Of a DNA stretch of 33,353 nucleotides, positions 4,177 to 29,998 are shown piece by piece (within the stretch, counting starts at the first letter, position 1; the number at the start of each line of letters is the position of its first letter). Under the pieces are notes generated by a model. It had not been told where the DNA came from and did no database searches. It saw nothing but the letters and a program-made list of their open reading frames with translations. The translations under genes were made by a program, and so were the position numbers. The stretch is from Candidatus Magasanikbacteria bacterium RIFCSPHIGHO2_02_FULL_47_14 (lineage in GTDB: Bacteria > Patescibacteriota > Patescibacteriia > Magasanikbacterales > UBA922), in the NCBI GenBank assembly GCA_001784275.1, contig MFQB01000012.1:1-33353 (forward strand). Direction: 5' to 3'.

Positions 4177-4234
4177 TCATGTTGTCACACCTGTGGATAA
4201 GTATTTTCATTTAACCAAAAAATAGAAAGGATTG

Positions 4235-4243: not shown

Positions 4244-4290
4244 ATTTTTTCTTTTAAAATGAACACGTCAGATAGTCTCGAATCAAAAAT

Positions 4291-10641: not shown

Positions 10642-11959
10642 GTCGAAAAGCAAATTTTCTTCGATGAGAGAAAAAAATGCTGTCCTTTTCCTTGCTAAAA
10701 TTTTTGATGGCGCAAAACAAGTGCCCCATCTTCAATATTTTATTGGCAACGGTTTTTGGATGACCCTAAAAGAAGGGGCAACGACACTCCTTGGCGTGTT
10801 TGTCTCAGTAGCCCTTGCTCGCCTACTGACAAAAGAAACTTACGGACAATATCAACTCGTCATCACCATTATCAGTCTGTTTTCAGTTTTTTCAATCCCT
10901 GGACTAAACTCGTCACTAACCCGGTCAGTCGCACGTGGATACGACGGAAACTATAGAAATAGTGTGCACATAAGTTTTTGGTGGTCACTTATTGCCGTTC
11001 CTCTTCTCTCAAGTCTCGCGGGGTATTTTTACATTATAGGAAATCAAGATGTAGCGGCGAGCTTCTTGATTTCTGCGATTTTTTTCCCCTTCTTTTATGC
11101 CCCAAATACATGGAATGCATTCTTGGTTGGAAAACAAAAATTTAACCTGCTAACACGCTGGAATATCATTTCCGTTCTTTTCCAAAGTTTTCTTCTCGTA
11201 ACAATGGCCTGGATTTTCAAAAATAATCTTATTGTTTTGGTCTTCAGCTATTTTTTTTCATATACTATTTTCAACTACATATGGTACAAAAAAAGTTTTG
11301 CGCTCATCCAAACAGACAAAAAAAACGAGGAAGACATAGATTATGGTTTTTTCCTTACCAAACTATCGACACTGGAAATCGTCGCGTCATACATAGATAA
11401 AGTGCTCGTCGGACTTCTTCTCGGGCCTGAGTCGCTCGCAATTTACACCATCGTTTCATTGATTGCCGTAAAAATAAAAGACCTATCAAAAGTGGTTGGC
11501 CAACTTATCTTTCCAAAATTTTCAACAAGCAAAAAAACCTTTGTAGACATTCTTTATGCATACCAAAGACCGTGGCTTTTATTTACCTTGAGCATGGTCG
11601 CAATTTCAGGACTATATTACGTCAGTATACCCACTCTTATACGGTTACTTTTCAGTGAACAATATACACCATACACATACCTTGCGCAGTGGTTTACGAT
11701 AACCGTTGTATTGTCGTTCCCTCTTGCGGTTTTAGCATATTATGTACTGGCAAAAAAAGAAAAAAAAATCATAATTCTTTCGCGTCCGATTTTTGCTTTT
11801 ATACGAATAGTACTGAACGCTTTTGCTATTTATTTTTTCGGTCTGATTGGGGCCGTGGTAGCATTTAACTTATCCATGCTCATTCGTCTATTCTTTTTTC
11901 TTTTCGGAATCAAATACACTCAACCAAAAAAAGGCAAAGATGAGTGCCTTAGGATATAA
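10628..11959 (+). CDS. Wzx-like oligosaccharide/polysaccharide flippase (MOP superfamily)
   Basis: Polytopic protein with a Wzx-type N-terminus (VFVSVALARLLTKETYGQYQLVITIISLFSVFSIPGLNSSLTRSVARG). The tracked ORF starts at 10559, 83 nt inside the upstream gene. ATG 10628 (14-nt overlap) or ATG 10664 are more plausible starts. Confidence 0.75.
   Translation: MKDDKSKSKFSSMREKNAVLFLAKIFDGAKQVPHLQYFIGNGFWMTLKEGATTLLGVFVSVALARLLTKETYGQYQLVITIISLFSVFSIPGLNSSLTRSVARGYDGNYRNSVHISFWWSLIAVPLLSSLAGYFYIIGNQDVAASFLISAIFFPFFYAPNTWNAFLVGKQKFNLLTRWNIISVLFQSFLLVTMAWIFKNNLIVLVFSYFFSYTIFNYIWYKKSFALIQTDKKNEEDIDYGFFLTKLSTLEIVASYIDKVLVGLLLGPESLAIYTIVSLIAVKIKDLSKVVGQLIFPKFSTSKKTFVDILYAYQRPWLLFTLSMVAISGLYYVSIPTLIRLLFSEQYTPYTYLAQWFTITVVLSFPLAVLAYYVLAKKEKKIIILSRPIFAFIRIVLNAFAIYFFGLIGAVVAFNLSMLIRLFFFLFGIKYTQPKKGKDECLRI
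11924..11950 (-). terminator. Weak candidate intrinsic terminator of the 19-gene minus-strand operon
   Basis: Minus strand reads AAGGCA-ctcatctt-TGCCTT followed by a T-run (7 T in total). The hairpin begins in the TAA stop of the 11949-13037 gene and lies inside the last codons of the convergent Wzx gene. Confidence 0.35.
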
Positions 11960-13037
11960 ACTCATGAAATGGATAGATATCTTCTCTGTCCAAAATTTGA
12001 ACGAGGAGGCTGACCCCCCACAAAAAAAGACATGTCCCGTGAATATCCGGCTCATTTCTCCCCCGACTTACTGGAGCATCATAATACCACTTTCCTGACG
12101 AACCAGGCAAAAAGGAAAATCCACCGATACTCGGATAGTAATGCGCTCGATATCGTCGAAGCCGGTCCCAGGCAAATGTATTCAGTTCCTCGTTTCGATA
12201 CTCCGTTCCAACCACTTTTGTACAATACGTCAGTACAAACGTTATATTAAAGTGATCACATGCGTGAGTGTCATGTTGTGCGGACAGGACCGTGTCCAAT
12301 ATACGATCTGCATGGGCAAAATTCATTCTTTCCGCAACCAACAAACCCGTTAGGATCTTCATGGCTCCATTTATTTTTTGAGAAAGAGATGGTGTGCCCA
12401 TGTACCAAAATCCGTCTGAGTGTTGTAGTCGATTAACCCAGCGTATCGCTGCGTCTATCAAAGTTTCTTTGTTTTCAGATAAACTACATGCAAGAAAAAA
12501 TAAAAGGTGACTAAAGTGACTTCCCGCTGCCCATGGTTTATGCCAATCAAGGGCCGATAGATATCTCTCTATGTCTTGTTCAGATTCCACAAGCGACGTG
12601 ATTGCATACCGAGGCATATGGGAAAAAAGTGTCATCGCAGAAAATGCCTGGCGTGTTTCAGCAAGGTGTACTTGCTTACCTCTGTGAATGTTGCCTGTCT
12701 TGAAGATATACCACAAACGGTACGGAACGGAAGACCACTCAATCCACTGATCTATAAAAAAACCAGTTGGCTTCTGAAAAGATTGTATAAAATTACATGC
12801 CTCCTCCACTTCTTGTTCATACTCCTTTCTTAACCCAAGTGTGTATATAATCTTTAAAAAGAAAACAGAGTTACCAAGGCCCCATTGCGCTTTTTCTCTG
12901 AGATAGTCACCGGTGAGTGAATAGTGGTATCTCCCCGGTCGGCCAGGCACTTTTAACTTCTGCAAAAATTGAGGAACAGCATGAGGAAGCGCAAGTAGCC
13001 ATTGTTGAATTTCTTCGATGTCTCGTCCGTCAGTCAT
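11949..13037 (-). CDS. Hypothetical protein, possibly alpha/alpha-toroid (prenyltransferase / terpene-cyclase-like or glycan hydrolase/lyase-like repeats)
   Basis: 362 aa with an ATG start. It has recurring Q/YxxxxG(F/G)(F/W) motifs (QKPTGFFIDQW, QHSDGFWYMG, YYPSIGGFSF) and no TM segment. The family call is tentative. Confidence 0.7.
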   Translation of the reverse strand: MTDGRDIEEIQQWLLALPHAVPQFLQKLKVPGRPGRYHYSLTGDYLREKAQWGLGNSVFFLKIIYTLGLRKEYEQEVEEACNFIQSFQKPTGFFIDQWIEWSSVPYRLWYIFKTGNIHRGKQVHLAETRQAFSAMTLFSHMPRYAITSLVESEQDIERYLSALDWHKPWAAGSHFSHLLFFLACSLSENKETLIDAAIRWVNRLQHSDGFWYMGTPSLSQKINGAMKILTGLLVAERMNFAHADRILDTVLSAQHDTHACDHFNITFVLTYCTKVVGTEYRNEELNTFAWDRLRRYRAHYYPSIGGFSFLPGSSGKWYYDAPVSRGRNEPDIHGTCLFLWGVSLLVQILDREDIYPFHEFIS

Positions 13038-13530
13038 ACGAGAGTTCTCTCAAAACTCGGGCCGGGACCCCGACAGCCAGTGAATCCGGTGGCAAATCTT
13101 TCGTGACAACTGCACCAGCACCTACAACAGTATTTTTGCCAATAGAAACACCTGGGTTAACGATCACACCAGAACCCAACCAGACTCCATCATCAATCCT
13201 GACTGGCAGCGCAATATGCTTTCTGACAGAGGCGGGGTGTTCATAGTCCAGCCCCCCGGTATTAATAATACATCCAGGAGAAATACGTACACGACTTCCT
13301 ATGTAAATATCCGCCATCGCGTTAAGCACAACACCATGATTGATTCGTGTCGCATCCCCTACAAAAATATGGTGAGGATGATACACATAGATATTGCCCG
13401 AGACACTGGATAGGCGCCCCAAATTGCCAAAAAGACACCTCCATTTCCATGTCGTTCCGAGTTTATGCAGACCTCGAAGCCATTTAAATATCAGTAAAAA
13501 AAACCGGTGAAAAATCGATACATCTTTCAT
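13030..13530 (-). CDS. Hexapeptide-repeat (LbH) O-acetyltransferase, WcaF / maltose-acetyltransferase-like
   Basis: Left-handed beta-helix repeats (IGSRVRISPGCIINTGG ... IDDGVWLGSGVIVNPGVSIGKNTVVGAGAVVTKDLP). The tracked start at 13557 is TTG. ATG at 13530 lies 1 nt after the upstream stop and is preferred. Confidence 0.85.
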   Translation of the reverse strand: MKDVSIFHRFFLLIFKWLRGLHKLGTTWKWRCLFGNLGRLSSVSGNIYVYHPHHIFVGDATRINHGVVLNAMADIYIGSRVRISPGCIINTGGLDYEHPASVRKHIALPVRIDDGVWLGSGVIVNPGVSIGKNTVVGAGAVVTKDLPPDSLAVGVPARVLRELSYD

Positions 13531-13531
13531 A

Positions 13532-14194
13532 TCACTTTTTATTATGCGCAATAACAATTATCTTCCGGCTAAAAAATGAATGGCGGAGCAATCTAAAAAA
13601 AATGCCCCCTGTCGGGATAATCTCGACGTCAAAAAAGTATTTTTTGAATAACTTTTTTGCTTTAGAGACAGTAAACTTATTTACGTGAGTTGGATCATCG
13701 TGTAGTCGTTGAAATCTTCCAAAAAAAACATCAATGATGTCGTACACACGCTTGACTGGATAGTTGGGAGTAACAAAAAAACAAACACCGTCTGGATAGA
13801 GAATACGATGAATCTCTTGCATGTAAAAATCAATGTCAGAAATCGGTATATGCTCGATGACTTGGTCTGAGTGAATAAGGTGAAACGTATCTCGGTCAAA
13901 TGGTAACGGTTCCAACGGTTTCACTAAAAGCATATTCTTCCATCCTTCTCTCTGGAGACGTTGGACTCTTGTATCTGATACTTCTACGCCATAGATGTTT
14001 TCTTTTTTAAACCAAGCAGTAAAAAACGGTACATATTTTCCATTACCAAAACCATAGTCAAGACACCTCCGCTCCTGATCTGAAGACAATAAAGGAAGGA
14101 CATTCTCACGAAATGCCGCCTCCCAGGCAGTGGGTACTACACCTTTTTGTGCCCGATCACGGGCATACTGTTCAAAATCTTGAGACATACTCAT
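13532..14194 (-). CDS. Class I SAM-dependent methyltransferase
   Basis: Motif I is CLDYGFGNGKY, with post-I/II elements (VEVSD ... FHLIHSDQVIEHI). The tracked start at 14239 is GTG. In-frame ATGs lie at 14215, 14194 and 14188, so the start is uncertain. Confidence 0.8.
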   Translation of the reverse strand: MSMSQDFEQYARDRAQKGVVPTAWEAAFRENVLPLLSSDQERRCLDYGFGNGKYVPFFTAWFKKENIYGVEVSDTRVQRLQREGWKNMLLVKPLEPLPFDRDTFHLIHSDQVIEHIPISDIDFYMQEIHRILYPDGVCFFVTPNYPVKRVYDIIDVFFGRFQRLHDDPTHVNKFTVSKAKKLFKKYFFDVEIIPTGGIFFRLLRHSFFSRKIIVIAHNKK

Positions 14195-15263
14195 CACTAG
14201 ATAGGATTCCTTCATGCAAAAGAATATCGCGTATGGCACGAAATGTAAAGTCGTATGTATACCCGAGTCGAACTAATTGTTCCCGTGTATTGACGATCGT
14301 GTTGGTTGCAAGCAATATCTTTTTTGCCAAGTCGTCTGGATCTGGCTTTGCAACAAACCCTCCAACACGCCAGACATGTGATACAGCCGCCGGGCTATCG
14401 TCACAGCAGACAACAGGTATATTGCAGGCCGCTGCCTCCAATATAATACGCGGACCCATCTCACGATAGTTCGTTGTCGTCAATAAACACCGAGATTGGT
14501 TATACAAGCGAGCAACTTCTTCCGGCGACTGCCAGCCCGCGAATGTTGTAACGTGGGGGTATTCTCGCTTTAGTCTTGCACCGGGCATCACCAATGTCTT
14601 TCCCGCCCGTGCGGTAGCACGTATTGCCAACTCCGGACGCTTCCAATATCCCTCGGAACCACGAGATGGATAGATACAGTCCCACCGTTTCGGCTCGTCT
14701 ATATTTGGTCGAAATATTTTTTCATTCGCGGGCTTTGGAGCGACAATAATGCGACTCTGATCGATATATATTCTCGCTGCAAGCTGCTTTTTTTGAAAAT
14801 CATGATCAACTAAGTGATAATCAACGCACCGATGATACCTCCCAACAGACTTTTTGAGACTTCTATTCGAATACGAAATTTTTAAGTAATCTTTCAATGT
14901 ATAGGAAATAGCTGAACTATAATATAATAACTTTATACACCTCATGGATGAAACTCCTTGTAAAAAATCATCATATGGAAAACTGTGATGATTTAAAAAC
15001 AGAACGTCCGGTTTTTCCAAAGCAAGATATTGTAGAATTTCCTTTTTTGTGCGACAAAAATAATAGCTGAGCGATTGGGTGTGGGACTGATAACTGCCGT
15101 AACAAAAATCAGAGAGCGTGACGATACGCACGTCAAAAAAATCAGACAAACGGCGCGCGGCATATACCGTAGAGTCTTCAACGGCCAGCATCGCCCCCCC
15201 ACCCTCTGGCACCAACTTTTTTTGCCAATGCCAAATAAAAAAAATCTTTTTTTTCATCTCCAT
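14172..15263 (-). CDS. GT-B fold glycosyltransferase (GT4-like)
   Basis: 363 aa with an ATG start. The C-terminal half has the E-x7-E type segment NYREMGPRIILEAAACNIPVVCCD. Confidence 0.8.
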   Translation of the reverse strand: MEMKKKIFFIWHWQKKLVPEGGGAMLAVEDSTVYAARRLSDFFDVRIVTLSDFCYGSYQSHTQSLSYYFCRTKKEILQYLALEKPDVLFLNHHSFPYDDFLQGVSSMRCIKLLYYSSAISYTLKDYLKISYSNRSLKKSVGRYHRCVDYHLVDHDFQKKQLAARIYIDQSRIIVAPKPANEKIFRPNIDEPKRWDCIYPSRGSEGYWKRPELAIRATARAGKTLVMPGARLKREYPHVTTFAGWQSPEEVARLYNQSRCLLTTTNYREMGPRIILEAAACNIPVVCCDDSPAAVSHVWRVGGFVAKPDPDDLAKKILLATNTIVNTREQLVRLGYTYDFTFRAIRDILLHEGILSSDEYVSRF

Positions 15264-15268
15264 AGGTA

Positions 15269-15976
15269 TTACTTTTGCGCTATCACAAGATAGAGGCTGG
15301 GATATGCAGTATACACTCCGCGTTTTTGTTCTTCATATACTTCGGAACACAGTATATTGTTCGATGACCGGAAAAAAAAACTTTTGAATAACTTCGTAAC
15401 AAAAAATAAACAAAGAAGCGGCCAATACCAGATTTTTTTATATAGCATATTCATAAGAGTCAAGTCAAAGTCACCAACTTGGTATACTGAAACGGAAGAA
15501 AAATTGCGAAACAAAAATTTCAAAGAATGAAATCCAAAACGAAAATAGTCCGGGAGACTATGTAACCGATACATAAATGGAACAACCACGATAGCATAAC
15601 CGTCTTGTTTCAACGTACGTTGCATTTCGTCTACAGCTCGCTGTGGTTCCGGAAGATGTTCAAGAGAGGCGACAGACAAAAAATTATTTACTGTCCCGTC
15701 TCCAAAAGGCATGTTCTGCATGTCAACAAACACCTCATACGGCGGCACAATATTGCTGGCTATGTATGTGAGCCGAGGGTTGACTTTCCTGTAGGTCGCA
15801 TTCGTTTTTGGTGATGAACCAAGATCAACAACTGACCCGCTGAGCTGTGATAGCAACTGTGCTAATATCGTATCTGTGAGGAGGCGCGGTATAGAGCTTC
15901 TATAAAATAAAATCTTCCAGGCATTTCGAAAAAGAAAATAAAAAGATAAAATCGGTTTATGCAATTCAAGAGACAT
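15269..15976 (-). CDS. SAM-dependent methyltransferase (Methyltransf_11-like, degenerate motif I)
   Basis: 235 aa. Motifs seen: VVDLGSSPKTN ... MPFGDGTVNNFLSVASLEHLPEPQRAVDEMQRTLKQDGYAIVVVP. Confidence 0.7.
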   Translation of the reverse strand: MSLELHKPILSFYFLFRNAWKILFYRSSIPRLLTDTILAQLLSQLSGSVVDLGSSPKTNATYRKVNPRLTYIASNIVPPYEVFVDMQNMPFGDGTVNNFLSVASLEHLPEPQRAVDEMQRTLKQDGYAIVVVPFMYRLHSLPDYFRFGFHSLKFLFRNFSSVSVYQVGDFDLTLMNMLYKKIWYWPLLCLFFVTKLFKSFFFRSSNNILCSEVYEEQKRGVYTAYPSLYLVIAQK

Positions 15977-15983
15977 ATCAAAT

Positions 15984-17012
15984 TCAGGTAATAAGTTGGC
16001 TCATTTTCTTAAGAAAATAAATATTTTTTTCTAAATATTCAGCTCGTTTTTTTGATAAAAGAGTCCGAACTGTATTCTCGTCGCCTTGAAGCTCTGCAAA
16101 CAATGACAGCAACACTTCTGGGGTTATATCTTGTAACGCGACAGAAAACAAAGACGGATACCCGACCATATCAACAAACGCATCGCACTTAATGTTATAC
16201 GAGATATTTAAAAATGGTTTCCCTGCGCCAAGAGCGAAAATCCCCATATGCCCACGTGATCCGACCAAATAATCCATTTGGCTATATGCCCCCATCAGCT
16301 GTTGTGCAGAAGAAGAAAACAATAAAGGGATATCAACACGCTGTCGAAGGCTCAAATAGGAGTCAGTAACTTGTTTTGTATGTGCGATGAGATAGCATGC
16401 ATACTCTGTATGTAACACGGATATAGTTGCGACAAGTGTACGAATATAATTTTGAGCAGCCAGAGTCGAAAGACGAGACAGTGGCACCAACACAAAACCA
16501 ATCTTTTTCTTCTCTGTGAAAGCTAATTCAAATGGAATAGGTGACAAAAACATGGATGGACATGGAACAAGGTCCGTCGGTATTCCTTTGGAAGCAAGCT
16601 CCATTTGGCTCATCACGTCTCGAACTGAACTCAAAGTTACATAATCGTGAAGATGTTGAATTTTTTTCATCATTCTTTTATATCTTTTTTCGTCTTTTGC
16701 CTCGTAATTCAAACCAACACCATATAAAAATATAGGCTTTTTTATACCTTTAAGTGCCCGATATGAAAGCCGCAAGAGTGTCTTTTTTGCATATGGCCAA
16801 TACAGACCGCCTCCCCCAACAACCACACAATCAAAATCTCTATTGACACGGGCAATTGTTGCAGAATCAAAATCTTGATATGCAATAAAAAAATCTTCAA
16901 AGGCGGCTTGTGTATCTATATGCTCCCGTATCAGATATTTAATACCCTCGGCAGATCCGACGTCACCCAGGTTATTATCGTTCGCATAACAGTGAAAAAT
17001 GTTTAACGCCAT
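15984..17012 (-). CDS. Polysaccharide pyruvyl transferase (CsaB/WcaK/EpsO family)
   Basis: 342 aa. The N-terminal NLGDVGSAEGI and the VVVGGGGLYWP motif are characteristic of the PS_pyruv_trans family. Confidence 0.75.
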   Translation of the reverse strand: MALNIFHCYANDNNLGDVGSAEGIKYLIREHIDTQAAFEDFFIAYQDFDSATIARVNRDFDCVVVGGGGLYWPYAKKTLLRLSYRALKGIKKPIFLYGVGLNYEAKDEKRYKRMMKKIQHLHDYVTLSSVRDVMSQMELASKGIPTDLVPCPSMFLSPIPFELAFTEKKKIGFVLVPLSRLSTLAAQNYIRTLVATISVLHTEYACYLIAHTKQVTDSYLSLRQRVDIPLLFSSSAQQLMGAYSQMDYLVGSRGHMGIFALGAGKPFLNISYNIKCDAFVDMVGYPSLFSVALQDITPEVLLSLFAELQGDENTVRTLLSKKRAEYLEKNIYFLKKMSQLIT

Positions 17013-17026
17013 AAGACCGGTGGCTA

Positions 17027-18106
17027 TTATTTTTTTTCTTTATTCAAAAGTAAACGGTAGACAGTCTCGTAGTACTGTCGCACGATACAGTTCCAATCAT
17101 ACAGGGGTACCGCTGCAAAACCATTGCGAGCAAGCTGATCCGAAAAATTCTTGTCATGTGCAACAGACAATATACCTTGAGCTAAACCATGCGGGTCGTC
17201 CACGTCGCAGATTACAGCATTAACAGCATGCTGGCAAATGTCAGGAACCATGCCTACATTCGTTGTGACAACTGGTACACCTGTTGCCCATGATTCAAGT
17301 ATTGCCTTCGGCCCTCCTTCAAGTCGAGATGGGACAACGTATAGGTCAAGTGCCTGATAATATGGAACAATTCTGCAATATTCAGATACGTATGTGTGGA
17401 AAAATGGTATGCCAGATCGTTGCAACCTTTGTTTGACGTATCCGCGGGACGGACCAGTCAAAAGCACAAAGATATTCCTCTCTTTTGCGACCATATCGAG
17501 AGCATCACAAAATACGTCAGGACCCTTAATATATTTCGGTTCAAGCCCGTGCCCCCAATAGTTACCGTCTTTTTGAAAACAACCGATCACACAAACATTA
17601 AGTGAAATCCCGAGTCGCTCACGAATGAGTTGTTTTGTCTCCTGAGAGACTGGCGAAAAATGTGAAATGTCTACACCTATCGGAATGACTTCCACGATGT
17701 CCTTACGCAGGCCTAACCGCAGGAGATGCTCTCTTGTGTTTGTGCATGACGTAACAACGCGTTTTATATGCGTGTTGATGTAAGGGATGTGGCGGCGAGC
17801 AACAACGTCGTCCTCAACATGAAACCACGTCAAGACTAACGTATTTGAGAAAACATCAACGGCTTTCTGTGCAACTGACTGCGTATACGAATGAAATGAT
17901 CCAAAGTGAATGAGCGTGTTGCGTAGTCCTCGTGGTGTTACTCGTACAGTAGCGTCACACAGGCCAAGGGATGTAAGTCGGGAGGTAATTTCACATCCGT
18001 CCTGTCTGATTGACCACGGGGCATTTTCCACAATATATACTAACTGATATCTTTTTCCCAAAAGATTACGCACTATGTCAAAAGCGAGGGTGGCGGTTGA
18101 TCTCAT
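17027..18106 (-). CDS. GT4 family glycosyltransferase
   Basis: 359 aa. E-x7-E signature PSRLEGGPKAILESWATGVPVVTTNVG. Confidence 0.85.
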   Translation of the reverse strand: MRSTATLAFDIVRNLLGKRYQLVYIVENAPWSIRQDGCEITSRLTSLGLCDATVRVTPRGLRNTLIHFGSFHSYTQSVAQKAVDVFSNTLVLTWFHVEDDVVARRHIPYINTHIKRVVTSCTNTREHLLRLGLRKDIVEVIPIGVDISHFSPVSQETKQLIRERLGISLNVCVIGCFQKDGNYWGHGLEPKYIKGPDVFCDALDMVAKERNIFVLLTGPSRGYVKQRLQRSGIPFFHTYVSEYCRIVPYYQALDLYVVPSRLEGGPKAILESWATGVPVVTTNVGMVPDICQHAVNAVICDVDDPHGLAQGILSVAHDKNFSDQLARNGFAAVPLYDWNCIVRQYYETVYRLLLNKEKK

Positions 18107-18115
18107 GTGACAATA

Positions 18116-19605: not shown

Positions 19606-19619
19606 AATCGTACATACCT

Positions 19620-20561: not shown

Positions 20562-20567
20562 ATTTTT

Positions 20568-21695: not shown

Positions 21696-21707
21696 ACAAA
21701 GGCATGC

Positions 21708-22655: not shown

Positions 22656-23620
22656 ACGTCAAAGGGCGGGGCCAAATTCAAAAACTCATCGTGTGGTATT
22701 TGTCGAAGTGACTGAATTCTTTGGCGATGTTTTAAAGCGCGCGGTATATGACGAAAAAATAACCAGTGTGAAATGAGAAAACTATAAAAAAGCATGACGT
22801 CATGTTTACGAACAATCTGACGCAATGTTTTATAAAAAAAATAACTATAACCGACGACGTACCATTTGAATAGCGAAAGAACTGTATAACTTTTGGTAAT
22901 GGTGTACATAAATCCGGCCATTTCATACTTATATTTCCAGCGATATGTATCTCGATCGAGTAATCGCTGCACACCCAGATGCACAGCGTGGGACCGAGTA
23001 TACAAAAAATTTTGATATCCAAGCAAGTATGCACGGATTCCAATGTCCCAGTCGTCAAGACAATATGGAAAGGTCTCATCAAATCCACCGACAGTATCCC
23101 ATATATCTTTGCGGAAAAACAACAGCCCCCCCATGGGACATGGTATCTCAAAAGGGACGCTGTCAGACACCGTTCGCAGTGGAACGCTAGGCTTACGACG
23201 ATTGGTGTAGAGACCGTAAGCATCAGTGAGGTCGCCCCCCCAGTCAATAAACGGGATCGACACAAATGCCGCTTTCGGGTGTGTCTGGTAGAAGGAGACA
23301 AGTTTTTCCAACAGCCGGACATCCTCCGGAAGTATGTCGTCATCCAAAAGGAGTACATAATCTGCTGTTGCATATCCCATACCTATGTTCTTTCCTTTTG
23401 AATACCCGTAATTTACGTTATTTCTTATAACGTGGATTGATGGGAACTGATCAACTAAAAAAGAAACCTGCTGGTCATCCGAACCGTTGTCTATAACGTA
23501 TATCTTATAGTTGGGATATGTGAAAGATAACAAGCGAGGTAATATACGCTCCATGTATTTTTTTCCATTATAGTGAAGTATGACAATGTCAACTGATGGC
23601 GCGGTAGACTCCATGACCAT
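22652..23620 (-). CDS. GT2 family glycosyltransferase
   Basis: 322 aa. Motifs seen: VDIVILHYNG...YVIDNGSDD and LLLDDD. Its stop overlaps the next gene's start (ATGA at 22652-22655). Confidence 0.85.
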   Translation of the reverse strand: MVMESTAPSVDIVILHYNGKKYMERILPRLLSFTYPNYKIYVIDNGSDDQQVSFLVDQFPSIHVIRNNVNYGYSKGKNIGMGYATADYVLLLDDDILPEDVRLLEKLVSFYQTHPKAAFVSIPFIDWGGDLTDAYGLYTNRRKPSVPLRTVSDSVPFEIPCPMGGLLFFRKDIWDTVGGFDETFPYCLDDWDIGIRAYLLGYQNFLYTRSHAVHLGVQRLLDRDTYRWKYKYEMAGFMYTITKSYTVLSLFKWYVVGYSYFFYKTLRQIVRKHDVMLFYSFLISHWLFFRHIPRALKHRQRIQSLRQIPHDEFLNLAPPFDV

Positions 23621-23625
23621 AAAAA

Positions 23626-24354
23626 CTATTTTTTACAAATCACTAAAATATCTTTTGAAAAAATGGTTGTTGTTTTTCTTCCGTAGAGCCTCGTCGTTAT
23701 TAACATATATGACTGAATCAACATACTGAGTAACCACGCCGGGTAATTGAGCGGATTTTCGTAGAAAACATAAATTGCCAAACCGTACACCGTCACATCA
23801 GAAAAACCGGCAAGTCGTGCTACTTGGCTCAGACTCTCCTGGGTAAAGCCAATTTCGTGGGTAAAGTCTATATACCTGCCTCCCGCTGCGGTCATCCAAT
23901 TTGACATATTCGGTGTTTTTATACAGAGGACTCCACCGGGGCGGAGAGCAACAAACATTTTTTCTAAAAGCTCAACAATAACATCTTTTGTTAAGTGTTC
24001 AATGATGTCGTTAAATACAATCGCGTCAAACTCGTTTCGACGGTCGTGAAAAAAAGAATGGAGGTCGTGTTGTTCTGTAGCGAAACCTTGTTTTTGACAA
24101 AAAGAAACTACTTCTGTAGAGATATCGACACCTAAAAAATTCGTATATCCTTCCCGTTGCAAAAAAAACAGAAAGTCCCCCATGCCGCATCCCGCATCAA
24201 CAATACGAGCGTTTTTGTTTTTTGGCAAATGAGATGCATAATTTTTGCGAAAATAACGGCGACGAACTTTATACTCTCGCTGTATCTCCTCAGGACTATG
24301 CGTATAGCCAAAATGAGTTGAAATATATCGATCGAATAGTTTGTGTGTGTTCAT
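23626..24354 (-). CDS. Class I SAM-dependent methyltransferase
   Basis: Motif I is IVDAGCGMGDFLFFL, with downstream FDAIVFNDIIEHL. The tracked start at 24390 is TTG and overlaps the upstream gene by 32 nt. ATG at 24354 (MNTHKLF...) lies 4 nt after the upstream stop. Confidence 0.8.
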   Translation of the reverse strand: MNTHKLFDRYISTHFGYTHSPEEIQREYKVRRRYFRKNYASHLPKNKNARIVDAGCGMGDFLFFLQREGYTNFLGVDISTEVVSFCQKQGFATEQHDLHSFFHDRRNEFDAIVFNDIIEHLTKDVIVELLEKMFVALRPGGVLCIKTPNMSNWMTAAGGRYIDFTHEIGFTQESLSQVARLAGFSDVTVYGLAIYVFYENPLNYPAWLLSMLIQSYMLITTRLYGRKTTTIFSKDILVICKK

Positions 24355-24358
24355 AAGA

Positions 24359-24970
24359 TTATGCAATGCGTGCTTCAAATACGTAAGCAAAAGGAATTCC
24401 CAGCCATAACCTCACCGGAAATACCCGGATATCACTATACCCAAGTTCATCCATCATTTCCAAAACTTCAACTTCTGAATACATATATTTCACCACTTTC
24501 CTTAACTTCCAAGCCAAAGTGGTGTAGAACCATCCGCCAATGCCATAGCCAATAATAGTAAAAAAAATAGCGCCCGACTGTTGGGCCAGAACACTTCTGC
24601 TTTCTCTCAAAAAGCTAAAAAGCTCTTCTCGATTCAAATATTCTGTCATCCAAAAAGAAACAATCATATCATGCGGTGTTGTTATATGTCGAGCAAAGTC
24701 AGAGGCGCTTGCTTCAACCACGGAAAATTCGGGGGGGCACAAGTGTGGATTAACATCTACGCCAGTTATTTTATTTCTATTTTTCTGAAAAAATTTCGAG
24801 TAATACCCGGTACCAATACCAACTTCGACGATTTGTTTGTCCCGTACAAAATTTACCAACGGTAAAATATATCTGCTCGTTGGAACGCGCAAGAGATAGT
24901 GCGAGAGTCCCTTCTTATCATATAAAGCGGTGGTAACACTCTGATATCGGCTATATCCTAAGGCTGGCAT
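24359..24970 (-). CDS. Class I SAM-dependent methyltransferase
   Basis: Motif I is IVEVGIGTGYYSKFF. The tracked start at 24991 is TTG and the first ATG is at 24970. Either start overlaps the upstream gene, by 20 or 41 nt. Confidence 0.75.
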   Translation of the reverse strand: MPALGYSRYQSVTTALYDKKGLSHYLLRVPTSRYILPLVNFVRDKQIVEVGIGTGYYSKFFQKNRNKITGVDVNPHLCPPEFSVVEASASDFARHITTPHDMIVSFWMTEYLNREELFSFLRESRSVLAQQSGAIFFTIIGYGIGGWFYTTLAWKLRKVVKYMYSEVEVLEMMDELGYSDIRVFPVRLWLGIPFAYVFEARIA

Positions 24971-25883: not shown

Positions 25884-25894
25884 ATGAAAATCGT

Positions 25895-27736
25895 TTAAGA
25901 AAAATATGCCTTATGCCACATTTCGAGTGCGAGAAGCGCCCAAAGTCGTTTGCCATGACCGCCCTTGCTTTGATGCTCTTCGAGCATGTGTTGAATAGCC
26001 TCTCGTCTAAAAAGAGTGTATATGAAACTTTCCTGATCGTGAAATTGTTCACGTATGTAAGGACGTAACTCATGTTGAAACCAGGCATCGATGGGCACTG
26101 AGAACCCATGCTTCTGGCGCGTGAGAACTGAGCGCGGCAACCGAGACCTCAAAGCGCGACGGAGTATTTTTTTTCCTTGAAAAAAATCAAGTTTAAGCCT
26201 GGAAGGCATCTCGGCCATTCGCAGAACAAAAAGATGATCTAAAAAGGGCGCTCTCACTTCCAACGCATGCGCCATGCTTGCCATATCTGTCTTCACATTT
26301 AAGTCGTCGGGGACATAGGAATGAAAATCGAGCCATAATATTTGATTGATCCACTCGGCATGGATTTCTTTCACTTTGTTCTCGAATATATTTTCAACTC
26401 CCTGATGAGAGCTGTTGTACCCGGGCATGCACCACCGGCTTTTTAACCATTCGTCAAAGTAGTTAGTGAGGTTATAATGTCGACGGGCGGGCGACAAGGA
26501 GCCCATACGCTTAATTAAGTTGATTTTCGACGACAAAAAACGAGAAGGGAATATTTTTAGCGCTTCTGCAAGCCAAGGATACCGCAACAAGGCAAGATGT
26601 ACACGATACTTATCATATCCGGCAAAGTTTTCATCACCTCCATCGCCACTTAAAGCGACAGTAACGTACTTTCTCGTATACTGAGATAACATATAGGTTG
26701 GCAGCTGTGAACTATCCGCATATGGCTCTTCGTAGTGAACAAAAAGATTTTCAATATGAGCGAGGAGGTCCTGTGGCCCCACGCGACACTCGTGGTGTTC
26801 GGTCTGATATAGTGCAGAAACTTGTTGTGCATAGACGCCTTCGTCAAATTCTTTTTCTCCAAAACGAATAGAAAAAGTTTTTACTTTGTCAGTAAACTGA
26901 CTCATAGACGCGACAACAGCGCTGCTGTCAATACCTCCTGAGAGAAAAACGCCAATCGGGACGTCGCTAATCATTCGAAGTGATACTGCACGATCTATTT
27001 CCTCGAGGACATACGTTTCCCACTCCGATTGACTACGGTCATACCTTGGTATGTAGTTCAAAGAAAAATATTTTTGTTTTGTGAAACGACCGTCTTTAAG
27101 AGATAAAGTGAAGTAATGTCCCTGCTCCAACTTCTGAATATGCACAAAACCGGTCCGCGGAGCAGGAACGTATTGAAGTGTTAAAAAATCATAAATCGCT
27201 TTTCCGTCGACCTGACGTGGAATGGCATGTGTAAGAATTGCCTTTAATTCGGAACTGAAAATAAATCGATCGCCGTCGAAATAATACTTTAATGGCTTCT
27301 TGCCGAACCGATCTCGTGCCCCGAAAAGGATGCTCTCCTCTTTATCATATATCACAAAAGCAAACATCCCATTAAATTTGCTAAGGCATTCTGTGCCATA
27401 CTCCAAGTACGCAGCGGCCAGTACTTCAGTATCTGTTTGTGAATCAAACACATAGCCCTTTTGTTCCAGTTCAGAACGAATTTCAAAAAAGTTATACACC
27501 TCCCCATTAAAGGTAATGACAGCCGTCCTACCTTGGTGGGTATATATCATAGGCTGATGGCCACTTTGTGAAAGGTCCAAAATGGCAAGACGTAGATGGC
27601 CCAAGCCGACGTTCCTGTCTATAAAAATACCTCGATCATCCGGACCGCGATAGTTAATGGCCTGATTCATCTTCTCTATATCAGTCTGACTAACAGGCTG
27701 ATTTTTCAGTGAGACAAATCCGTTTATACCACACAT
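25895..27736 (-). CDS. asnB: Asparagine synthase family glutamine-dependent amidotransferase
   Basis: 613 aa. N-terminal MCGI (Cys2 Ntn nucleophile) and the PP-loop FLSGGIDSS. The context suggests glycan (uronate) amidation rather than housekeeping Asn synthesis. Confidence 0.9.
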   Translation of the reverse strand: MCGINGFVSLKNQPVSQTDIEKMNQAINYRGPDDRGIFIDRNVGLGHLRLAILDLSQSGHQPMIYTHQGRTAVITFNGEVYNFFEIRSELEQKGYVFDSQTDTEVLAAAYLEYGTECLSKFNGMFAFVIYDKEESILFGARDRFGKKPLKYYFDGDRFIFSSELKAILTHAIPRQVDGKAIYDFLTLQYVPAPRTGFVHIQKLEQGHYFTLSLKDGRFTKQKYFSLNYIPRYDRSQSEWETYVLEEIDRAVSLRMISDVPIGVFLSGGIDSSAVVASMSQFTDKVKTFSIRFGEKEFDEGVYAQQVSALYQTEHHECRVGPQDLLAHIENLFVHYEEPYADSSQLPTYMLSQYTRKYVTVALSGDGGDENFAGYDKYRVHLALLRYPWLAEALKIFPSRFLSSKINLIKRMGSLSPARRHYNLTNYFDEWLKSRWCMPGYNSSHQGVENIFENKVKEIHAEWINQILWLDFHSYVPDDLNVKTDMASMAHALEVRAPFLDHLFVLRMAEMPSRLKLDFFQGKKILRRALRSRLPRSVLTRQKHGFSVPIDAWFQHELRPYIREQFHDQESFIYTLFRREAIQHMLEEHQSKGGHGKRLWALLALEMWHKAYFS

Positions 27737-28881
27737 AAACGCTGATATAACTGAAAATACTGGTCGGCCATGTTCTCCCAGTGAAAGCGTTCCGCAATAC
27801 TCCGGCTGTACACGCCCATCTCTTTTTGCCGGTCAGGGTTAATATATACTTGATACAAGGCTTCTGAAATATCCTCTTCGTTTGGGTCTACAACATACCC
27901 GTTGCTCTTGACCAACATATCACTTCCACCAGTTTTCGTTGTGATAACCGGAAGTCCGCTTGCCATTGCCTCTAAGAGGGTGTTACTCATGCCCTCTCGT
28001 TCCGACACCAATACAAATACCGACGCATGCTGATAAGACGAAGGGAGTTCGTGATGAGGTACATGTGGTGAAAAGACCACCGTATCTTGAATATTCAATT
28101 CTTTACAATACGAAACGAGCTGTCTGCGCTCAGGTCCGTCTCCGATGAGGACCAATTCGACCGGTTTGCTTGAAATACGTTGAGAAAACTTTTTAAATGA
28201 CCGGAGCAGCAATGGAATGTTCTTAATACGATGCAATCGCCCAACAAATAACACACGAAAAACAGAACTTCTCTTTGTGTTGACACTGAATTTGTTTATA
28301 TCAACTCCATTTGGTATAACCGCATAGTCCCTACGCAAAAAATGCTCTGCCTCATTTTGGAGGTCATCACTATTCACAACTACTGCGCCTGCTTTCTTCC
28401 AACTTCGATAAATAAGAGACTTCATGACGGCGTACATGTATCGATAGCTGGGATTGTGGTATGGCACATCACTCCCTCGCAGACTTATCACGTATGGTGG
28501 TTCCAAAAAAGAGGCAACTATCCCACCGGGAATTCCCATAAACGCGTGCACCAAGTCATATTGCTGTGCCTGCATCATTTTTTTTGAAAAAAAATACGCC
28601 TGGACAGCATAACGTAATACGTCTTGATGTCTCTGGTGTTGAAGATGAACCTCGTTTTTTCCAATATCAAGGCGGTACATGACCGCTGAGTCAGACAATC
28701 GAACCACGTCCTTAGAACCCGGCGACCCAGTGATAACGTCAATCATCACGCGAGAACCGTGTATCTGAGTCAGAGAACGTACCAAATAGTCCACTGCGTT
28801 TGCAGCCCCACCTCCAAGTGGAGGAAACTCGTAACTAAGGAGAAGTATGCGCAATCGAGTATGCTGATCCATCTTTGCCAT
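27724..28881 (-). CDS. GT4 family glycosyltransferase
   Basis: 385 aa. N-terminal ILLLSYEFPPLGGGAANAV and E-x7-E signature VSEREGMSNTLLEAMASGLPVITTKTGG. Confidence 0.85.
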   Translation of the reverse strand: MAKMDQHTRLRILLLSYEFPPLGGGAANAVDYLVRSLTQIHGSRVMIDVITGSPGSKDVVRLSDSAVMYRLDIGKNEVHLQHQRHQDVLRYAVQAYFFSKKMMQAQQYDLVHAFMGIPGGIVASFLEPPYVISLRGSDVPYHNPSYRYMYAVMKSLIYRSWKKAGAVVVNSDDLQNEAEHFLRRDYAVIPNGVDINKFSVNTKRSSVFRVLFVGRLHRIKNIPLLLRSFKKFSQRISSKPVELVLIGDGPERRQLVSYCKELNIQDTVVFSPHVPHHELPSSYQHASVFVLVSEREGMSNTLLEAMASGLPVITTKTGGSDMLVKSNGYVVDPNEEDISEALYQVYINPDRQKEMGVYSRSIAERFHWENMADQYFQLYQRLCVV

Positions 28882-28883
28882 AG

Positions 28884-29858: not shown

Positions 29859-29910
29859 AGAGAACAAACCACCATTAGCGTAACATGCTCGGATCGAAAG
29901 AGCAAGCTGT

Positions 29911-29919
29911 TTTATAGCA
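29911..29919 (-). promoter_or_regulatory. Candidate extended -10 element (TGCTATAAA) for the 19-gene glycan operon
   Basis: Minus strand reads TGC (29917-29919) then TATAAA (29911-29916). It sits between the fusA terminator and the ATG at 29858. The -35 is poor. Confidence 0.3.
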
Positions 29920-29964
29920 GTCTGCAAAGACTGCAGGTAGTGCATAGATTCGTCAGGGCATGTA

Positions 29965-29998
29965 TTAAAAAAGAGGTCCTCTCTCAAGGACCTCTTTT
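29965..29998 (-). terminator. Intrinsic terminator after fusA
   Basis: 9-bp stem AAGAGGTCC / GGACCTCTT (29971-29979 / 29988-29996) with an 8-nt loop and T-runs on both strands. It starts 12 nt downstream of the fusA stop. Confidence 0.8.

Follow-up and report, generated by a model that had tools for sequence, protein, structure and literature searches.

What does a tightly packed operon that combines many glycosyltransferases with many methyltransferases make in a tiny uncultured groundwater bacterium? The operon lies in a stretch of 33,353 nucleotides (the window) from a Candidatus Magasanikbacteria (Patescibacteria) MAG. According to the ORF list and the start-codon choices, 19 consecutive genes (g01–g19) run on the minus strand from 29858 down to 11949, and all junctions range from -23 to +14 nt (Table 1). 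The packing described in a previous sequence-only reading of this DNA is reproduced from the ORF list together with all four overlaps, namely two 4-nt ATGA overlaps (22652-22655 and 18922-18925), one of 13 nt (27724-27736) and one of 8 nt (13030-13037). That reading also placed the DNA correctly in the Patescibacteria. The natural reading of this packing is that the 19 genes are co-transcribed as one transcription unit. Neither promoter-like sites (43 vs 41.5±6.2 in shuffled sequence) nor terminator-like sites (20 vs 16.8±3.7) are enriched within the operon. As for the limits proposed earlier, the upstream boundary is a strong terminator 3' of the fusA stop, whereas the hairpin and T-run at the operon 3' end are present yet weak, and lie in the last part of the convergent Wzx gene. 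No σ70-like match of at least 9/12 is found on the minus strand in the 110 nt between the fusA terminator and the ATG at 29858.

Table 1. Coordinates of the genes and terminators of the locus, with the evidence for each assignment.
Feature	Assignment	Position	Strand	Evidence
fusA terminator	Intrinsic terminator, GAGGTCC...GGACCTC hairpin + T-run	29968..29998	-	Read directly in sequence
g01	GT2 polyprenyl-phosphate glycosyltransferase, ArnC/PgfS/GtrB-like, 324 aa	28884..29858	-	Pfam Glycos_transf_2, 100 bits
g02	GT4 glycosyltransferase (GT4a)	27724..28881	-	Glycos_transf_1, 118 bits; Glyco_transf_4
g03	Glutamine-dependent AsnB-type amidotransferase	25895..27736	-	Asn_synthase, 324 bits; GATase_7
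g04	CE4/NodB-fold putative deacetylase, 310 aa	24951..25883	-	AlphaFold + Foldseek
g05	Class I SAM methyltransferase MT1	24359..24970	-	Methyltransf_25, 27.8 bits (cut-off 27)
g06	Class I SAM methyltransferase MT2	23626..24354	-	Methyltransf_23, 61.7 bits; motif I VDAGCGMG
g07	GT2 glycosyltransferase (GT2b)	22652..23620	-	Glycos_transf_2, 82.8 bits; DDD motif
g08	GT2 (GT2c, EpsE/TuaG-like), conserved core	21708..22655	-	Glycos_transf_2, 97 bits; EpsE E 2e-37
g09	GT4 (GT4b), conserved core	20568..21695	-	Glycos_transf_1, 123 bits
g10	Class I SAM methyltransferase MT3, 313 aa	19620..20561	-	Methyltransf_11, 48.7 bits
g11	Class I SAM methyltransferase MT4, conserved core	18922..19605	-	Methyltransf_23, 58 bits
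g12	Class I SAM methyltransferase MT5, conserved core	18116..18925	-	Methyltransf_11, 74.7 bits
g13	GT4 (GT4c), conserved core	17027..18106	-	Glyco_trans_1_4, 76 bits
g14	Polysaccharide pyruvyl transferase	15984..17012	-	PS_pyruv_trans, 83 bits
g15	Atypical class I methyltransferase MT6	15269..15976	-	Methyltransf_11, 35.8 bits, C-terminal half of model only
g16	Divergent GT4-like glycosyltransferase (GT4d)	14172..15263	-	Glycos_transf_1, 43 bits, C-terminal domain only
g17	Class I SAM methyltransferase MT7	13532..14194	-	Methyltransf_23, 53.7 bits; motif I LDYGFGNG
g18	Left-handed β-helix O-acetyltransferase, WcaF/LacA-like	13030..13530	-	Hexapep, 45.7 bits
g19	Uncharacterised (α/α)6 toroid protein, 362 aa, conserved core	11949..13037	-	AlphaFold pLDDT 92.9
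Operon 3' end	Weak terminator-like hairpin + T-run	11931..11950	-	6 pairs, 3 G-C, loop 8
p1	GT-C glycosyltransferase, PMT_2 (ArnT/Pmt-like), 510 aa	4291..5823	+	PMT_2, 45.7 bits (cut-off 26.1)
p2	798-aa protein, no known family	5846..8242	+	No Pfam/NCBIfam match
p3	800-aa polytopic membrane protein, weakly GT-C-like	8239..10641	+	PMT_2 E 6e-4, under cut-off
p4	Wzx/MOP-family flippase	10559..11959	+	Polysacc_synt, 70.6 bits (cut-off 28.2)

Pfam assigns three GT2 enzymes, four GT4 enzymes and seven class I SAM methyltransferases to the operon. Each GT2 carries a DxD motif and each GT4 an E-x7-E motif (at residue 296 in g02 and residue 268 in g16), in agreement with the glycosyltransferase counts made from the sequence. 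The other families are AsnB, a pyruvyl transferase, an LbH acetyltransferase, a CE4-fold protein and an (α/α)6 toroid protein. TM helices are found only in g01. Because the 18 other proteins are predicted to be soluble, glycan assembly is likely to be cytoplasmic. g01 aligns end to end with the polyprenyl-phosphate sugar synthases ArnC (E 1.9e-51 over 3-314/316) and PgfS (E 3e-46), both under the NCBIfam equivalog cut-offs, and has a DGD motif and two C-terminal TM helices (segments at residues 232 and 269).

Seven proteins pass the Pfam gathering score of a methyltransferase family, as previously counted, and their motif-I strings match exactly those listed before (VEVGIGTG, VDAGCGMG, LEVGCSSG, IDVGCGQG, LDGGCGLG, VDLGSSPK and LDYGFGNG). 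No two of them share more than 33% identity in partial alignments, which indicates that they are not recent duplicates, as had been argued. MT1, with motif I VEVGIGTG, is a weak scorer barely past the threshold (also Methyltransf_11, 24.6 bits, cut-off 21.2). Motif I of MT6 is degenerate (VDLGSSPK); its subfamily is kept in cassettes of other phyla with the motif VLDVGGxRR. MT3 has a conserved C-terminal extension and 981 homologues with 45-61% identity over the full length, covering about 70 GTDB species in many phyla. MT5 homologues at 37-50% identity occur in 47 metagenome loci, and the weak PDB matches of MT5 include one sugar O-methyltransferase (6uv6, E 1.6e-7). Because none of the seven reaches a curated equivalog cut-off, their acceptor chemistry is placed by context alone, which suggests sugar O-methylation.

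The pyruvyl transferase, LbH acetyltransferase and AsnB recognised from motifs are supported by Pfam (PS_pyruv_trans, Hexapep and Asn_synthase+GATase, respectively). g03 scores 471 bits against TIGR01536 (cut-off 267) and starts with MCG, with Cys at residue 2; its top-scoring model is the XrtA/PEP-CTERM amidotransferase, under the cut-off of that model. g14 matches the CsaB model (E 4.5e-15, under cut-off), and g18 matches the WcaF-family model (E 1.8e-25). g04, already suspected to be CE4-like, belongs to a family without a Pfam model and has no Pfam or NCBIfam match. Its fold is confirmed by an AlphaFold model (pLDDT 78, pTM 0.83), for which Foldseek retrieves the CE4/NodB deacetylases 3qbu (E 2e-9), 3rxz and ArnD 8t0j, and residues D10, E12, H80, H82 and H256 are invariant across 31 homologues. 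The toroid protein g19 was absent from the previous account. Its sole Pfam match is weak (Prenyltrans, E 0.003), and Foldseek retrieves terpene cyclases, farnesyltransferase β, GH88, GH76 and AGE-type epimerases (best E 1.2e-3). The 694 homologues of g19 come from bacteria and archaea, and some of them are fusions with GT4 domains.

A convergent plus-strand operon of four genes (p1–p4) lies beside the 19-gene operon. p1 has at least 7 TM segments. p2 has a single TM helix at the N-terminus and a large portion outside the cytoplasm. p3 has about 15 TM segments, is weakly similar to p1 across the PMT_2 region (E 0.001) and has no sequence match in the PDB. p4 has 9 TM segments and overlaps g19 convergently by 11 nt; translation of p4 probably starts downstream of 10641. 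In the profile search, no gene of the window contains a PGT, Wzy_C, Wzz, ABC-transporter or NDP-sugar-synthesis domain, consistent with the functions reported as missing (PGT, Wzy, chain-length regulator, ABC exporter and NDP-sugar synthesis), and the window likewise lacks a recognisable oligosaccharyltransferase or ligase (STT3, PglL/Wzy_C). However, the conclusion that initiation and export are non-textbook was overstated, because g01 is a full-length ArnC/PgfS-like enzyme and the neighbouring operon encodes Wzx and PMT_2 GT-C enzymes. Other loci, in which Wzx (about 300 bits) is syntenic with the core cassette, also count against that conclusion, as does the Tannerella precedent described below.

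The core block, composed of GT2c, GT4b, MT5, MT4, GT4c, the toroid protein and the convergent Wzx, reappears in dozens of loci that belong to several phyla. In 24 metagenome loci anchored on MT5, each 8 kb or longer, homologues with scores of 80 bits or more occur for GT4b (17 loci), GT2c (15), MT4 (11) and GT4c (9). The corresponding counts in 61 GTDB loci anchored on MT3 are 35 for GT4b, 29 for GT2c and 22 for MT5. Bit scores are 80-139 for GT2c homologues adjoining MT3 or MT5 homologues, 100-280 for GT4b in the anchored loci, 155-243 for MT4 adjoining MT5 and 238-312 for GT4c, which is also present in L071, L085, L086 and L093. The linkage between methyltransferases and glycosyltransferases, on which the sequence-only reading had staked its case, is thus conserved in both sets. 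L105 contains GT2c, GT4b, MT5, MT4, GT4c, Gmd, the toroid protein and MT6, with a convergent Wzx of 299 bits; in L105, L137 and L139, a p4 orthologue (296-302 bits) faces the cassette in convergent orientation. Related cassettes lie beside fused ABC exporters (L085, L086), Wzy_C (L086, L087, L093) and a Bac_transf PGT (L087). Such neighbouring export and ligation genes favour an exported product.

The chance is about even that the two operons form a single cell-envelope glycan locus, producing a lipid-linked, heavily tailored surface glycan flipped by Wzx. Most likely, the product is a sugar chain on the cell surface that carries many methyl groups. Six soluble glycosyltransferases (g02, g07, g08, g09, g13 and g16) would build a hetero-oligosaccharide of about six to seven sugars, and the O-acetyltransferase, the pyruvyl (ketal) transferase, the amidotransferase, the CE4-type de-N-acetylase and as many as seven SAM methyltransferases would modify the growing chain. 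The glutamine-dependent amidotransferase probably converts a uronic acid to the amide. The finished lipid-linked glycan would be flipped by the neighbouring Wzx. Outside the membrane, it would be transferred to a surface protein or wall polymer, or further decorated, by PMT_2-type GT-C enzyme(s), with the polyprenyl-phosphate-monosaccharide made by g01 as the donor. Gene order and packing, the protein families and folds, the split into soluble and membrane proteins and the synteny of the core block are results of the analysis, whereas the lipid carrier, sugar O-methylation as the methyltransferase chemistry, the order of steps, the acceptor and co-transcription are inferred. Several points count against this explanation: the window has neither a priming PGT nor a recognisable oligosaccharyltransferase or ligase, none of the methyltransferases attains an equivalog cut-off, MT1 has a borderline score and MT6 a degenerate SAM motif.

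With neither a polymerase nor a chain-length regulator recognised in the window, a defined oligosaccharide seems somewhat more probable than a long polymer of repeat units. However, the product could be a polymer if p3, with its 15 TM segments, acts as the polymerase. A cytoplasmic methylated polysaccharide of the mycobacterial type is unlikely, and the analogy drawn earlier with such polysaccharides and GPL is without specific support, because all seven methyltransferases fall short of every curated equivalog cut-off and homologous cassettes adjoin exporters, Wzy_C or PGT.

A surface oligosaccharide has precedents. The O-glycan cluster of Tannerella forsythia is polycistronic, spans 27 kb and contains 5 glycosyltransferases, 3 methyltransferases, AsnB and Wzx; its described genes include neither a PGT nor an oligosaccharyltransferase (PMC6120980). 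The Magasanikbacteria locus likewise has glycosyltransferases, methyltransferases, AsnB and Wzx, and its lack of PGT, Wzy and Wzz fits glycosylation loci of the oligosaccharide type, the Tannerella cluster being one example. In the Agl pathway of H. volcanii, a lipid-linked oligosaccharide is started by a Dol-P glycosyltransferase and then tailored by a methyltransferase, and the last sugar is attached outside the cell by a Dol-P-mannose-dependent transferase (PMC3871713). This pathway is a precedent for a lipid-linked, methyltransferase-tailored glycan.

The 1:1 ratio of methyltransferases to glycosyltransferases had been regarded as exceptional. However, loci with 5-8 methyltransferases and 3-9 glycosyltransferases were met repeatedly among the homologues, so that such a high methyltransferase content is a recurring feature and not a unique one. 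The core genes, which had no prior study, are widespread among other uncultured microbes.

The genes of the window correspond, by exact-sequence look-ups, to locus tags A3J66_03060 to 03155 of a Candidatus Magasanikbacteria MAG, and the same population is found at an identity of at least 99.9% in several assemblies. Rifle-type groundwater samples with this population are ERZ4903137, ERZ27254845, SRR3989338 and SRR2090155. The GenBank annotations of these genes are generic or hypothetical. The ORF list and the inspection of candidate starts give 19 consecutive genes (g01–g19) on the minus strand. With the chosen start codons, which match those called for this population in public assemblies, all junctions lie between −23 and +14 nt, and the four overlaps named in the sequence-only reading are exactly reproduced. 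A strong hairpin followed by a T-run is located downstream of the fusA stop codon. On the 3' side of the operon, a weak terminator-like hairpin lies where a gene on the plus strand, convergent with the operon, comes to its final codons; this gene shares an overlap of 11 nt with the last operon gene. Promoter-like and terminator-like matches within the operon are not commoner than in shuffled sequence, and there is no σ70-like match of at least 9/12 on the minus strand between the fusA terminator and the first ATG. Because the genes are tightly packed between these boundaries with no excess of internal signals, a single transcription unit can be inferred as the natural reading of the operon. 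Transmembrane (TM) helices are found only in the g01 product, and 18 of the 19 operon proteins are predicted to be soluble. Scans for tRNAs, Rfam families and tandem repeats found nothing inside the operon, and in the rest of the window only the 5' end of a 16S rRNA gene and a trivial 15-nt repeat. Three other candidates were rejected: a prophage or mobile island (no tRNA gene, and no mobile-element or integrase domain in the genes scanned), a defence system (the GT4-conflict Pfam match of the second gene, g02, scores 38 bits against 118 bits for Glycos_transf_1) and a synthase-dependent pathway (no multi-TM processive GT2).

Coordinates of features in the window and in homologous or related loci
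Sequence	Feature	Positions	Strand	Remark
Window	16S rRNA gene, 5' end	1-477		
Window	15-nt repeat	2829-2860		
Window	u1	2969-4102	minus	divergent from the PMT_2 gene
Window	longest ORF of the Wzx gene (p4), start	10559	plus	
Window	overlap of that ORF with the preceding gene	10559-10641	plus	83 nt
Window	weak terminator-like hairpin	11950-11931		3' side of the operon
Window	19-gene operon	29858 to 11949	minus	
Window	g19, (α/α)6 toroid	11949-13037	minus	
Window	g04, CE4-fold	24951-25883	minus	
Window	strong hairpin and T-run	about 29998-29968		downstream of the fusA stop
L090 (GCA_040960375.1)	glycan-tailoring set after fusA	12635-20474		1.1-Mb contig
L105	TM-less GT2 with small 3-TM protein	3415-4484		
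L137	TM-less GT2 with small 3-TM protein	1116-2253		
L107	863-aa ORF with u1-like domain	17881-20469		

Pfam bears out the gene content that had been recognised from motifs: three GT2 and four GT4 glycosyltransferases, seven class I methyltransferases (MT1–MT7), a pyruvyl transferase, a hexapeptide acetyltransferase and an AsnB-type amidotransferase. The DxD, E-x7-E, MCG and motif-I strings all lie where that reading had placed them. All seven methyltransferases pass the gathering threshold of a Pfam class I methyltransferase model, MT1 marginally (27.8 bits against 27, and 24.6 against 21.2) and MT6 with 35.8 bits against 21.2 on the C-terminal half of the Methyltransf_11 model only. The glycine-rich motif I of SAM-binding proteins (E/DxGxGxG) is canonical or near-canonical in five of them; MT3 has LEVGCSSG, which lacks the middle glycine, and MT6 has VDLGSSPK. 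In the MT6 subfamily motif I is reduced to VLDVGGxRR or VDLGSSPK, and this variant is conserved in cassettes (L018–L071 homologues) of Rokubacteria/Methylomirabilota, Nitrosotalea, Verrucomicrobiia and Omnitrophota. Motif I of MT6 thus appears atypical yet under selection, since its subfamily conserves the variant across phyla. Pairwise identity among the seven methyltransferases is at most 33% and extends over partial alignments only. Recent duplication, which had already been doubted from the differing motifs, is therefore rejected, and because of this low identity the methyltransferases appear to be old paralogues or independent acquisitions. None of them reaches an NCBIfam equivalog cut-off; five of them, together with the first three genes of the convergent operon (p1–p3) and the flanking genes u1 and u2, reach neither an equivalog nor a subfamily cut-off. 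Among PDB sequences, MT3 and MT5 match only generic class I methyltransferases, and only 6uv6, matched by MT5 (E 1.6e-7), carries the name of a sugar O-methyltransferase. The PDB and NCBIfam comparisons thus give generic similarity and do not tie these enzymes to any particular characterised sugar methyltransferase. Which sugars the locus uses, how they are methylated, which acceptor receives the glycan and how its synthesis is primed are all inferred.

MT3 has about 1,000 full-length homologues, and a profile scan of GTDB species representatives with MT3 finds about 70 species of many phyla, archaea included, the window's own species not being among the matches. The window proteins were mapped onto these MT3-anchored loci and onto 47 loci from metagenomes in which MT5 served as the anchor. 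Of the MT5-anchored loci, 24 span at least 8 kb; in these, homologues scoring at least 80 bits are found for the glycosyltransferases GT4b (17 loci), GT2c (15) and GT4c (9) and for MT4 (11); the same mapping of 61 MT3-anchored loci gives GT4b in 35, GT2c in 29 and MT5 in 22. The recurring block lies on one strand. The linkage of methyltransferases with glycosyltransferases is thus conserved in both sets of loci. In the best example, L105, GT2c, GT4b, MT5, MT4, GT4c, a GDP-mannose 4,6-dehydratase, the toroid protein and MT6 are followed by a convergent Wzx (299 bits to that of the window). Because this block recurs in relatives, the window operon appears to be an expanded version of a conserved core. 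Synteny elsewhere is limited to g08–g13 and g19, and the remaining genes vary between loci. The 1:1 ratio of methyltransferases to glycosyltransferases, which the sequence-only reading had held to be exceptional, does not set the window apart: methyltransferase-dense loci are common among its relatives, L085 and L086 having about seven methyltransferases and about nine glycosyltransferases each and L094 five and three in 8.5 kb. ABC exporters (fused ones in L085 and L086), Wzy_C genes or a priming phosphoglycosyltransferase (PGT) adjoin homologous cassettes, which argues for export of the products of these loci.

The closest non-self homologues of g04, g10 (MT3) and g19 are just 52–61% identical. 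The few organism-named homologues belong mostly to other phyla: Planctomycetes for g04, Methylomirabilis for g19, and both Patescibacteria and Bathyarchaeia for g10. The GC content of the locus (0.36–0.46) is lower than that of the flanking ribosomal genes (0.48). Such distant cross-phylum homologues and the lower GC content suggest a shared, horizontally exchanged gene pool behind the locus.

The first operon gene, g01, encodes a GT2 domain (Glycos_transf_2, 100 bits) with a DGD motif and, towards the C-terminus, two TM segments (residues 232 and 269). Because it aligns end to end with ArnC (3–314 of 316) and PgfS (3–304 of 308), g01 is predicted to be a polyprenyl-phosphate glycosyltransferase of the ArnC/GtrB/PgfS type, with scores below the equivalog cut-offs (175 against 529 bits for ArnC, the best model, and 158 against 500 for PgfS). 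In L105 and L137, a short g01-like GT2 of 233–243 aa without TM segments is paired with a small 3-TM protein of 117–139 aa, and loci of this type also carry large unclassified polytopic membrane proteins (550–730 aa, 8–12 TM segments); the counterpart in the window is the TM-anchored g01 together with p1 and p3. The convergent plus-strand operon consists of four genes, namely a GT-C enzyme of the PMT_2 family (p1; Pfam name dolichyl-phosphate-mannose-protein mannosyltransferase), a 798-aa protein of no known family with one TM segment (p2), a 15-TM protein weakly like PMT_2 (p3) and a Wzx/MOP flippase (p4; Polysacc_synt, 70.6 bits against a cut-off of 28.2). PDB sequence searches with p1 and p3 return zero matches. 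The convergent placement of p4 is kept in L105, L137 and L139. The longest p4 ORF overlaps the preceding gene and its Pfam match begins at residue 64; its true start is probably further downstream. The gene u1, on the other side of the PMT_2 gene, encodes a protein with a TM or signal segment at the N-terminus, repeats at the C-terminus, a six-glycine run and a linker rich in Ser, Pro and Thr (SPAPTVSPSTPG). An ORF of L107, 3.5 kb downstream of the last cassette gene with three unassigned ORFs between, contains a domain like that of u1 (81 bits). A role of u1 as a secreted glycosylation acceptor is speculative.

A domain scan of all genes of the window finds no priming PGT of the WbaP/Bac_transf or WecA/MraY type, and the window has no STT3 domain, no ABC domain (Wzm/Wzt or PglK-type exporter) and no NDP-sugar genes. 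The sequence-only reading had concluded that initiation and export follow no textbook pathway. The lack of such functions is confined to the 19 genes, since g01 is a predicted polyprenyl-phosphate glycosyltransferase and the convergent operon supplies Wzx and a PMT_2 GT-C enzyme. In the best-supported model, the glycan would be assembled in the cytoplasm on a polyprenyl carrier, with heavy tailoring, and the tailored glycan would be flipped by Wzx. Outside the membrane, GT-C enzymes would then transfer or decorate it with the polyprenyl-phosphate sugar made by g01.

This model has a close parallel in the O-glycosylation cluster of Tannerella forsythia, which is polycistronic, spans about 27 kb and encodes five glycosyltransferases, three methyltransferases, AsnB and Wzx; no PGT or other initiating enzyme and no oligosaccharyltransferase are among its described genes, and its product is a defined methylated oligosaccharide (PMC6120980). 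The window likewise combines several glycosyltransferases and SAM methyltransferases with an AsnB-type amidotransferase and Wzx, as in this Bacteroidetes locus. However, it has seven methyltransferases instead of three, lacks nonulosonic-acid or other NDP-sugar genes, adds the polyprenyl-phosphate GT2, PMT_2 GT-C enzymes and an (α/α)6 protein, and belongs to a Patescibacterium. The absence of recognisable PGT, Wzy and Wzz genes need not be anomalous, matching as it does such oligosaccharide-type glycosylation clusters. Wzx/Wzy O-antigen or capsule loci also combine cytoplasmic glycosyltransferases and tailoring enzymes with Wzx, whereas the window has no recognisable PGT, Wzy or Wzz domain and no NDP-sugar genes. 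The methyltransferase density here is much above that of known enterobacterial Wzx/Wzy loci.

A repeat-unit polymer, that is, a secondary cell-wall polymer, capsule or EPS, is possible, though not probable. A methylated and pyruvylated unit would be primed by a PGT encoded elsewhere, flipped by Wzx and polymerised or ligated by p3, and the pyruvylation might serve to anchor surface-layer proteins. The adjacent Wzx, the 15 TM segments of p3, which belongs to no known family, and the unclassified 8–12-TM proteins or Wzy_C genes of related loci are all consistent with this reading. The pyruvyl transferase g14 is related to the NCBIfam model S_layer_CsaB ('polysaccharide pyruvyl transferase CsaB') with an E value of 4.5e-15; its score, however, is far under the cut-off (55.7 against 213 bits). 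Furthermore, neither a polymerase domain such as Wzy_C nor a Wzz/PCP domain turns up in the domain scan of the window, where p2 and p3 stay unclassified, and seven different glycosyltransferases are many for one repeat unit.

The fourth operon gene, g04, had been taken for a CE4-like deacetylase, and its AlphaFold model (pLDDT 78) matches CE4/NodB deacetylases with an E value of 2e-9. Foldseek gives 58 PDB matches at E ≤1e-3 with a TM score of about 0.55, mostly CE4 with some GH57 entries, and ArnD is among them (8t0j, E 1.7e-6). Seven residues (D10, E12, H80, H82, R136, D158 and H256) are invariant in 31 homologues. No Pfam or NCBIfam model matches g04, and PDB sequence searches with g04 and g19 give insignificant matches only. 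Because even Polysacc_deac_1 does not match, g04 is predicted to form a divergent branch of putative deacetylases of the CE4/NodB fold. The GenBank protein of g04 (A3J66_03155) has only 188 aa, 61% of the ORF, and homologues of 50–55% identity, mostly from Planctomycetes (Sedimentisphaerales), span all 310 aa; the gene as deposited is probably too short.

The full-length match and two-TM anchor of g01, the nearby PMT_2 GT-C enzyme and the CE4-fold g04 resemble the ArnC-ArnD-ArnT, GtrB and S. mutans PgfS-PgfM systems. These systems add single sugars, whereas the window has six further glycosyltransferases and no small flippase of the ArnE/F or GtrA type. The locus might be a mosaic of at least two pathways, with a branch in which g01 makes polyprenyl-phosphate HexNAc, g04 de-acylates it and p1 transfers the amino sugar outside, separate from a main chain built by the core glycosyltransferases and methyltransferases. 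Some methyltransferases may then act on lipid, protein or an amide group, and the methyl count per sugar would be less than 1:1. The best model of g01, the ArnD match of g04, the family of p1, the variability of all genes other than g08–g13 and g19, and the generic sequences of the methyltransferases point in this direction. However, g01 and g04 are separated by g02 and g03 (AsnB), the small flippase is missing from the window, and such a mosaic is compatible with the Wzx-flipped, GT-C-finished glycan without conflict. The mosaic reading is unlikely.

In the Agl pathway of Haloferax volcanii, synthesis of an oligosaccharide on a lipid monophosphate begins with the Dol-P glycosyltransferase AglJ, the chain grows through the action of GT2 enzymes, and the SAM methyltransferase AglP tailors it; the Wzx-like AglR and the Dol-P-mannose-dependent transferase AglS complete the glycan outside the cell (PMC3871713). 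The window encodes the same kinds of protein, and the pathway offers, by analogy, a precedent for PGT-free priming by a polyprenyl- or Dol-P glycosyltransferase. The resemblance is in pathway logic only: the window lacks STT3/AglB, g01 reaches only 73 bits with the AglJ model, whose cut-off is 325, and the host is a bacterium. A stronger form of this analogy is decidedly unlikely. It holds that the core of GT2c, GT4b, MT5, MT4, GT4c, the (α/α)6 protein and a convergent Wzx makes an uncharacterised family of glycans that crosses phyla and domains and carries about one methyl group per sugar, that the chain would here be begun on polyprenyl monophosphate by the ArnC-like GT2 without any PGT and then transferred by the PMT_2 GT-C enzyme, as an archaeal Agl-like route in a bacterium, and that the toroid protein would be a new carbohydrate-active enzyme.

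The last operon gene, g19, was not named in the sequence-only reading. Its product gives a confident (α/α)6 toroid model (pLDDT 92.9) with weak Foldseek neighbours (E ≥1e-3), namely terpene cyclases, prenyltransferase β subunits, GH88, GH76 and AGE-type epimerases. The toroid family has 428 representative clusters among 1.84 billion proteins and occurs in bacteria and archaea, with Asgard and DPANN annotations included. In several fusions of about 700–736 aa (P0376, P0406, P0410, P0421 and P0498), the toroid is placed behind a GT4 (Glycos_transf_1) domain, an arrangement that appears to link the family functionally to glycosyl transfer. This (α/α)6 family is new and uncharacterised. An (α/α)6 hydrolase, MmpH, is encoded in the four-gene mycobacterial MMP cluster with MeT1, MeT3 and the GT4-type ManT (PMC9883506), and the window resembles such clusters in having methyltransferases amid GT4-type transferases, an (α/α)6-barrel protein and a predicted density of about one methyl group per sugar. 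The MMP cluster makes a cytoplasmic homopolymer, whereas the window combines seven different glycosyltransferases, one of them a membrane GT2, with a pyruvyl transferase and has genes for Wzx and GT-C enzymes next to the operon. A cytoplasmic polymethylated polysaccharide of the MGLP/MMP type, on which glycosyltransferases and methyltransferases would alternate on a soluble primer and the toroid would trim or recycle as MmpH does, with no carrier or exporter, would suit the 18 soluble proteins, the lack of a PGT or exporter in the operon itself and the near-unity ratio, but is highly improbable and the least likely reading, because the operon begins with a membrane polyprenyl-phosphate glycosyltransferase, the convergent Wzx gene overlaps the operon and shows synteny with the core cassette in other loci, and homologous cassettes stand beside export genes; moreover, a set of three GT2 and four GT4 enzymes, all different from one another, implies that the product is a heteroglycan and not a homopolymer, and no entry named MmpH or MMP hydrolase is among the top 50 Foldseek matches of g19. 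The mycobacterial analogy drawn in the sequence-only reading is thus not sustained, the methyltransferases too showing only generic similarity, where an MMP cluster has specific 1-O and 3-O mannoside methyltransferases.

The extended contig (L088) reads rpsL, rpsG and fusA, the 19-gene operon, the convergent four-gene operon, u1, u2 and trmD, the 16S rRNA gene, a 168-aa ORF, and then tuf, rpsJ, rplC and onward. Together with two unknown genes, trmD and the 16S rRNA gene, the roughly 26-kb locus thus separates fusA from tuf and splits the str/S10 array of ribosomal genes, which is usually contiguous. In a relative with S7 at least 90% identical and a fusA match of 1497 bits (L090), fusA is also not followed by tuf. 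A different glycan-tailoring set follows it there, with DUF2061, CysD and CysN/C-like sulfate-activation genes, AsnB (824 bits to g03), SxtJ, DUF5989 and a carbamoyltransferase. In this clade, the position after fusA may hold a glycan locus of variable content.

The locus is of a recognisable glycan-assembly type; its unusual features are the predicted density of methylation, the conserved but unstudied core and the new (α/α)6 family. Patescibacteria depend on other cells or live attached to them. To our knowledge, almost nothing is known about the chemistry of their surfaces, and a literature search found no account of Patescibacterial glycans or of this cassette. On the scale of the 1.1-Mb contig of the close relative, the two operons, about 26 kb together, would represent a large commitment to one surface molecule. 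The core cassette and the (α/α)6 family, sometimes fused to GT4, are open to biochemistry without culturing the organism. A densely O-methylated glycan would be unusually hydrophobic and would resist glycosidases, properties that would bear on host attachment, phage recognition and persistence.
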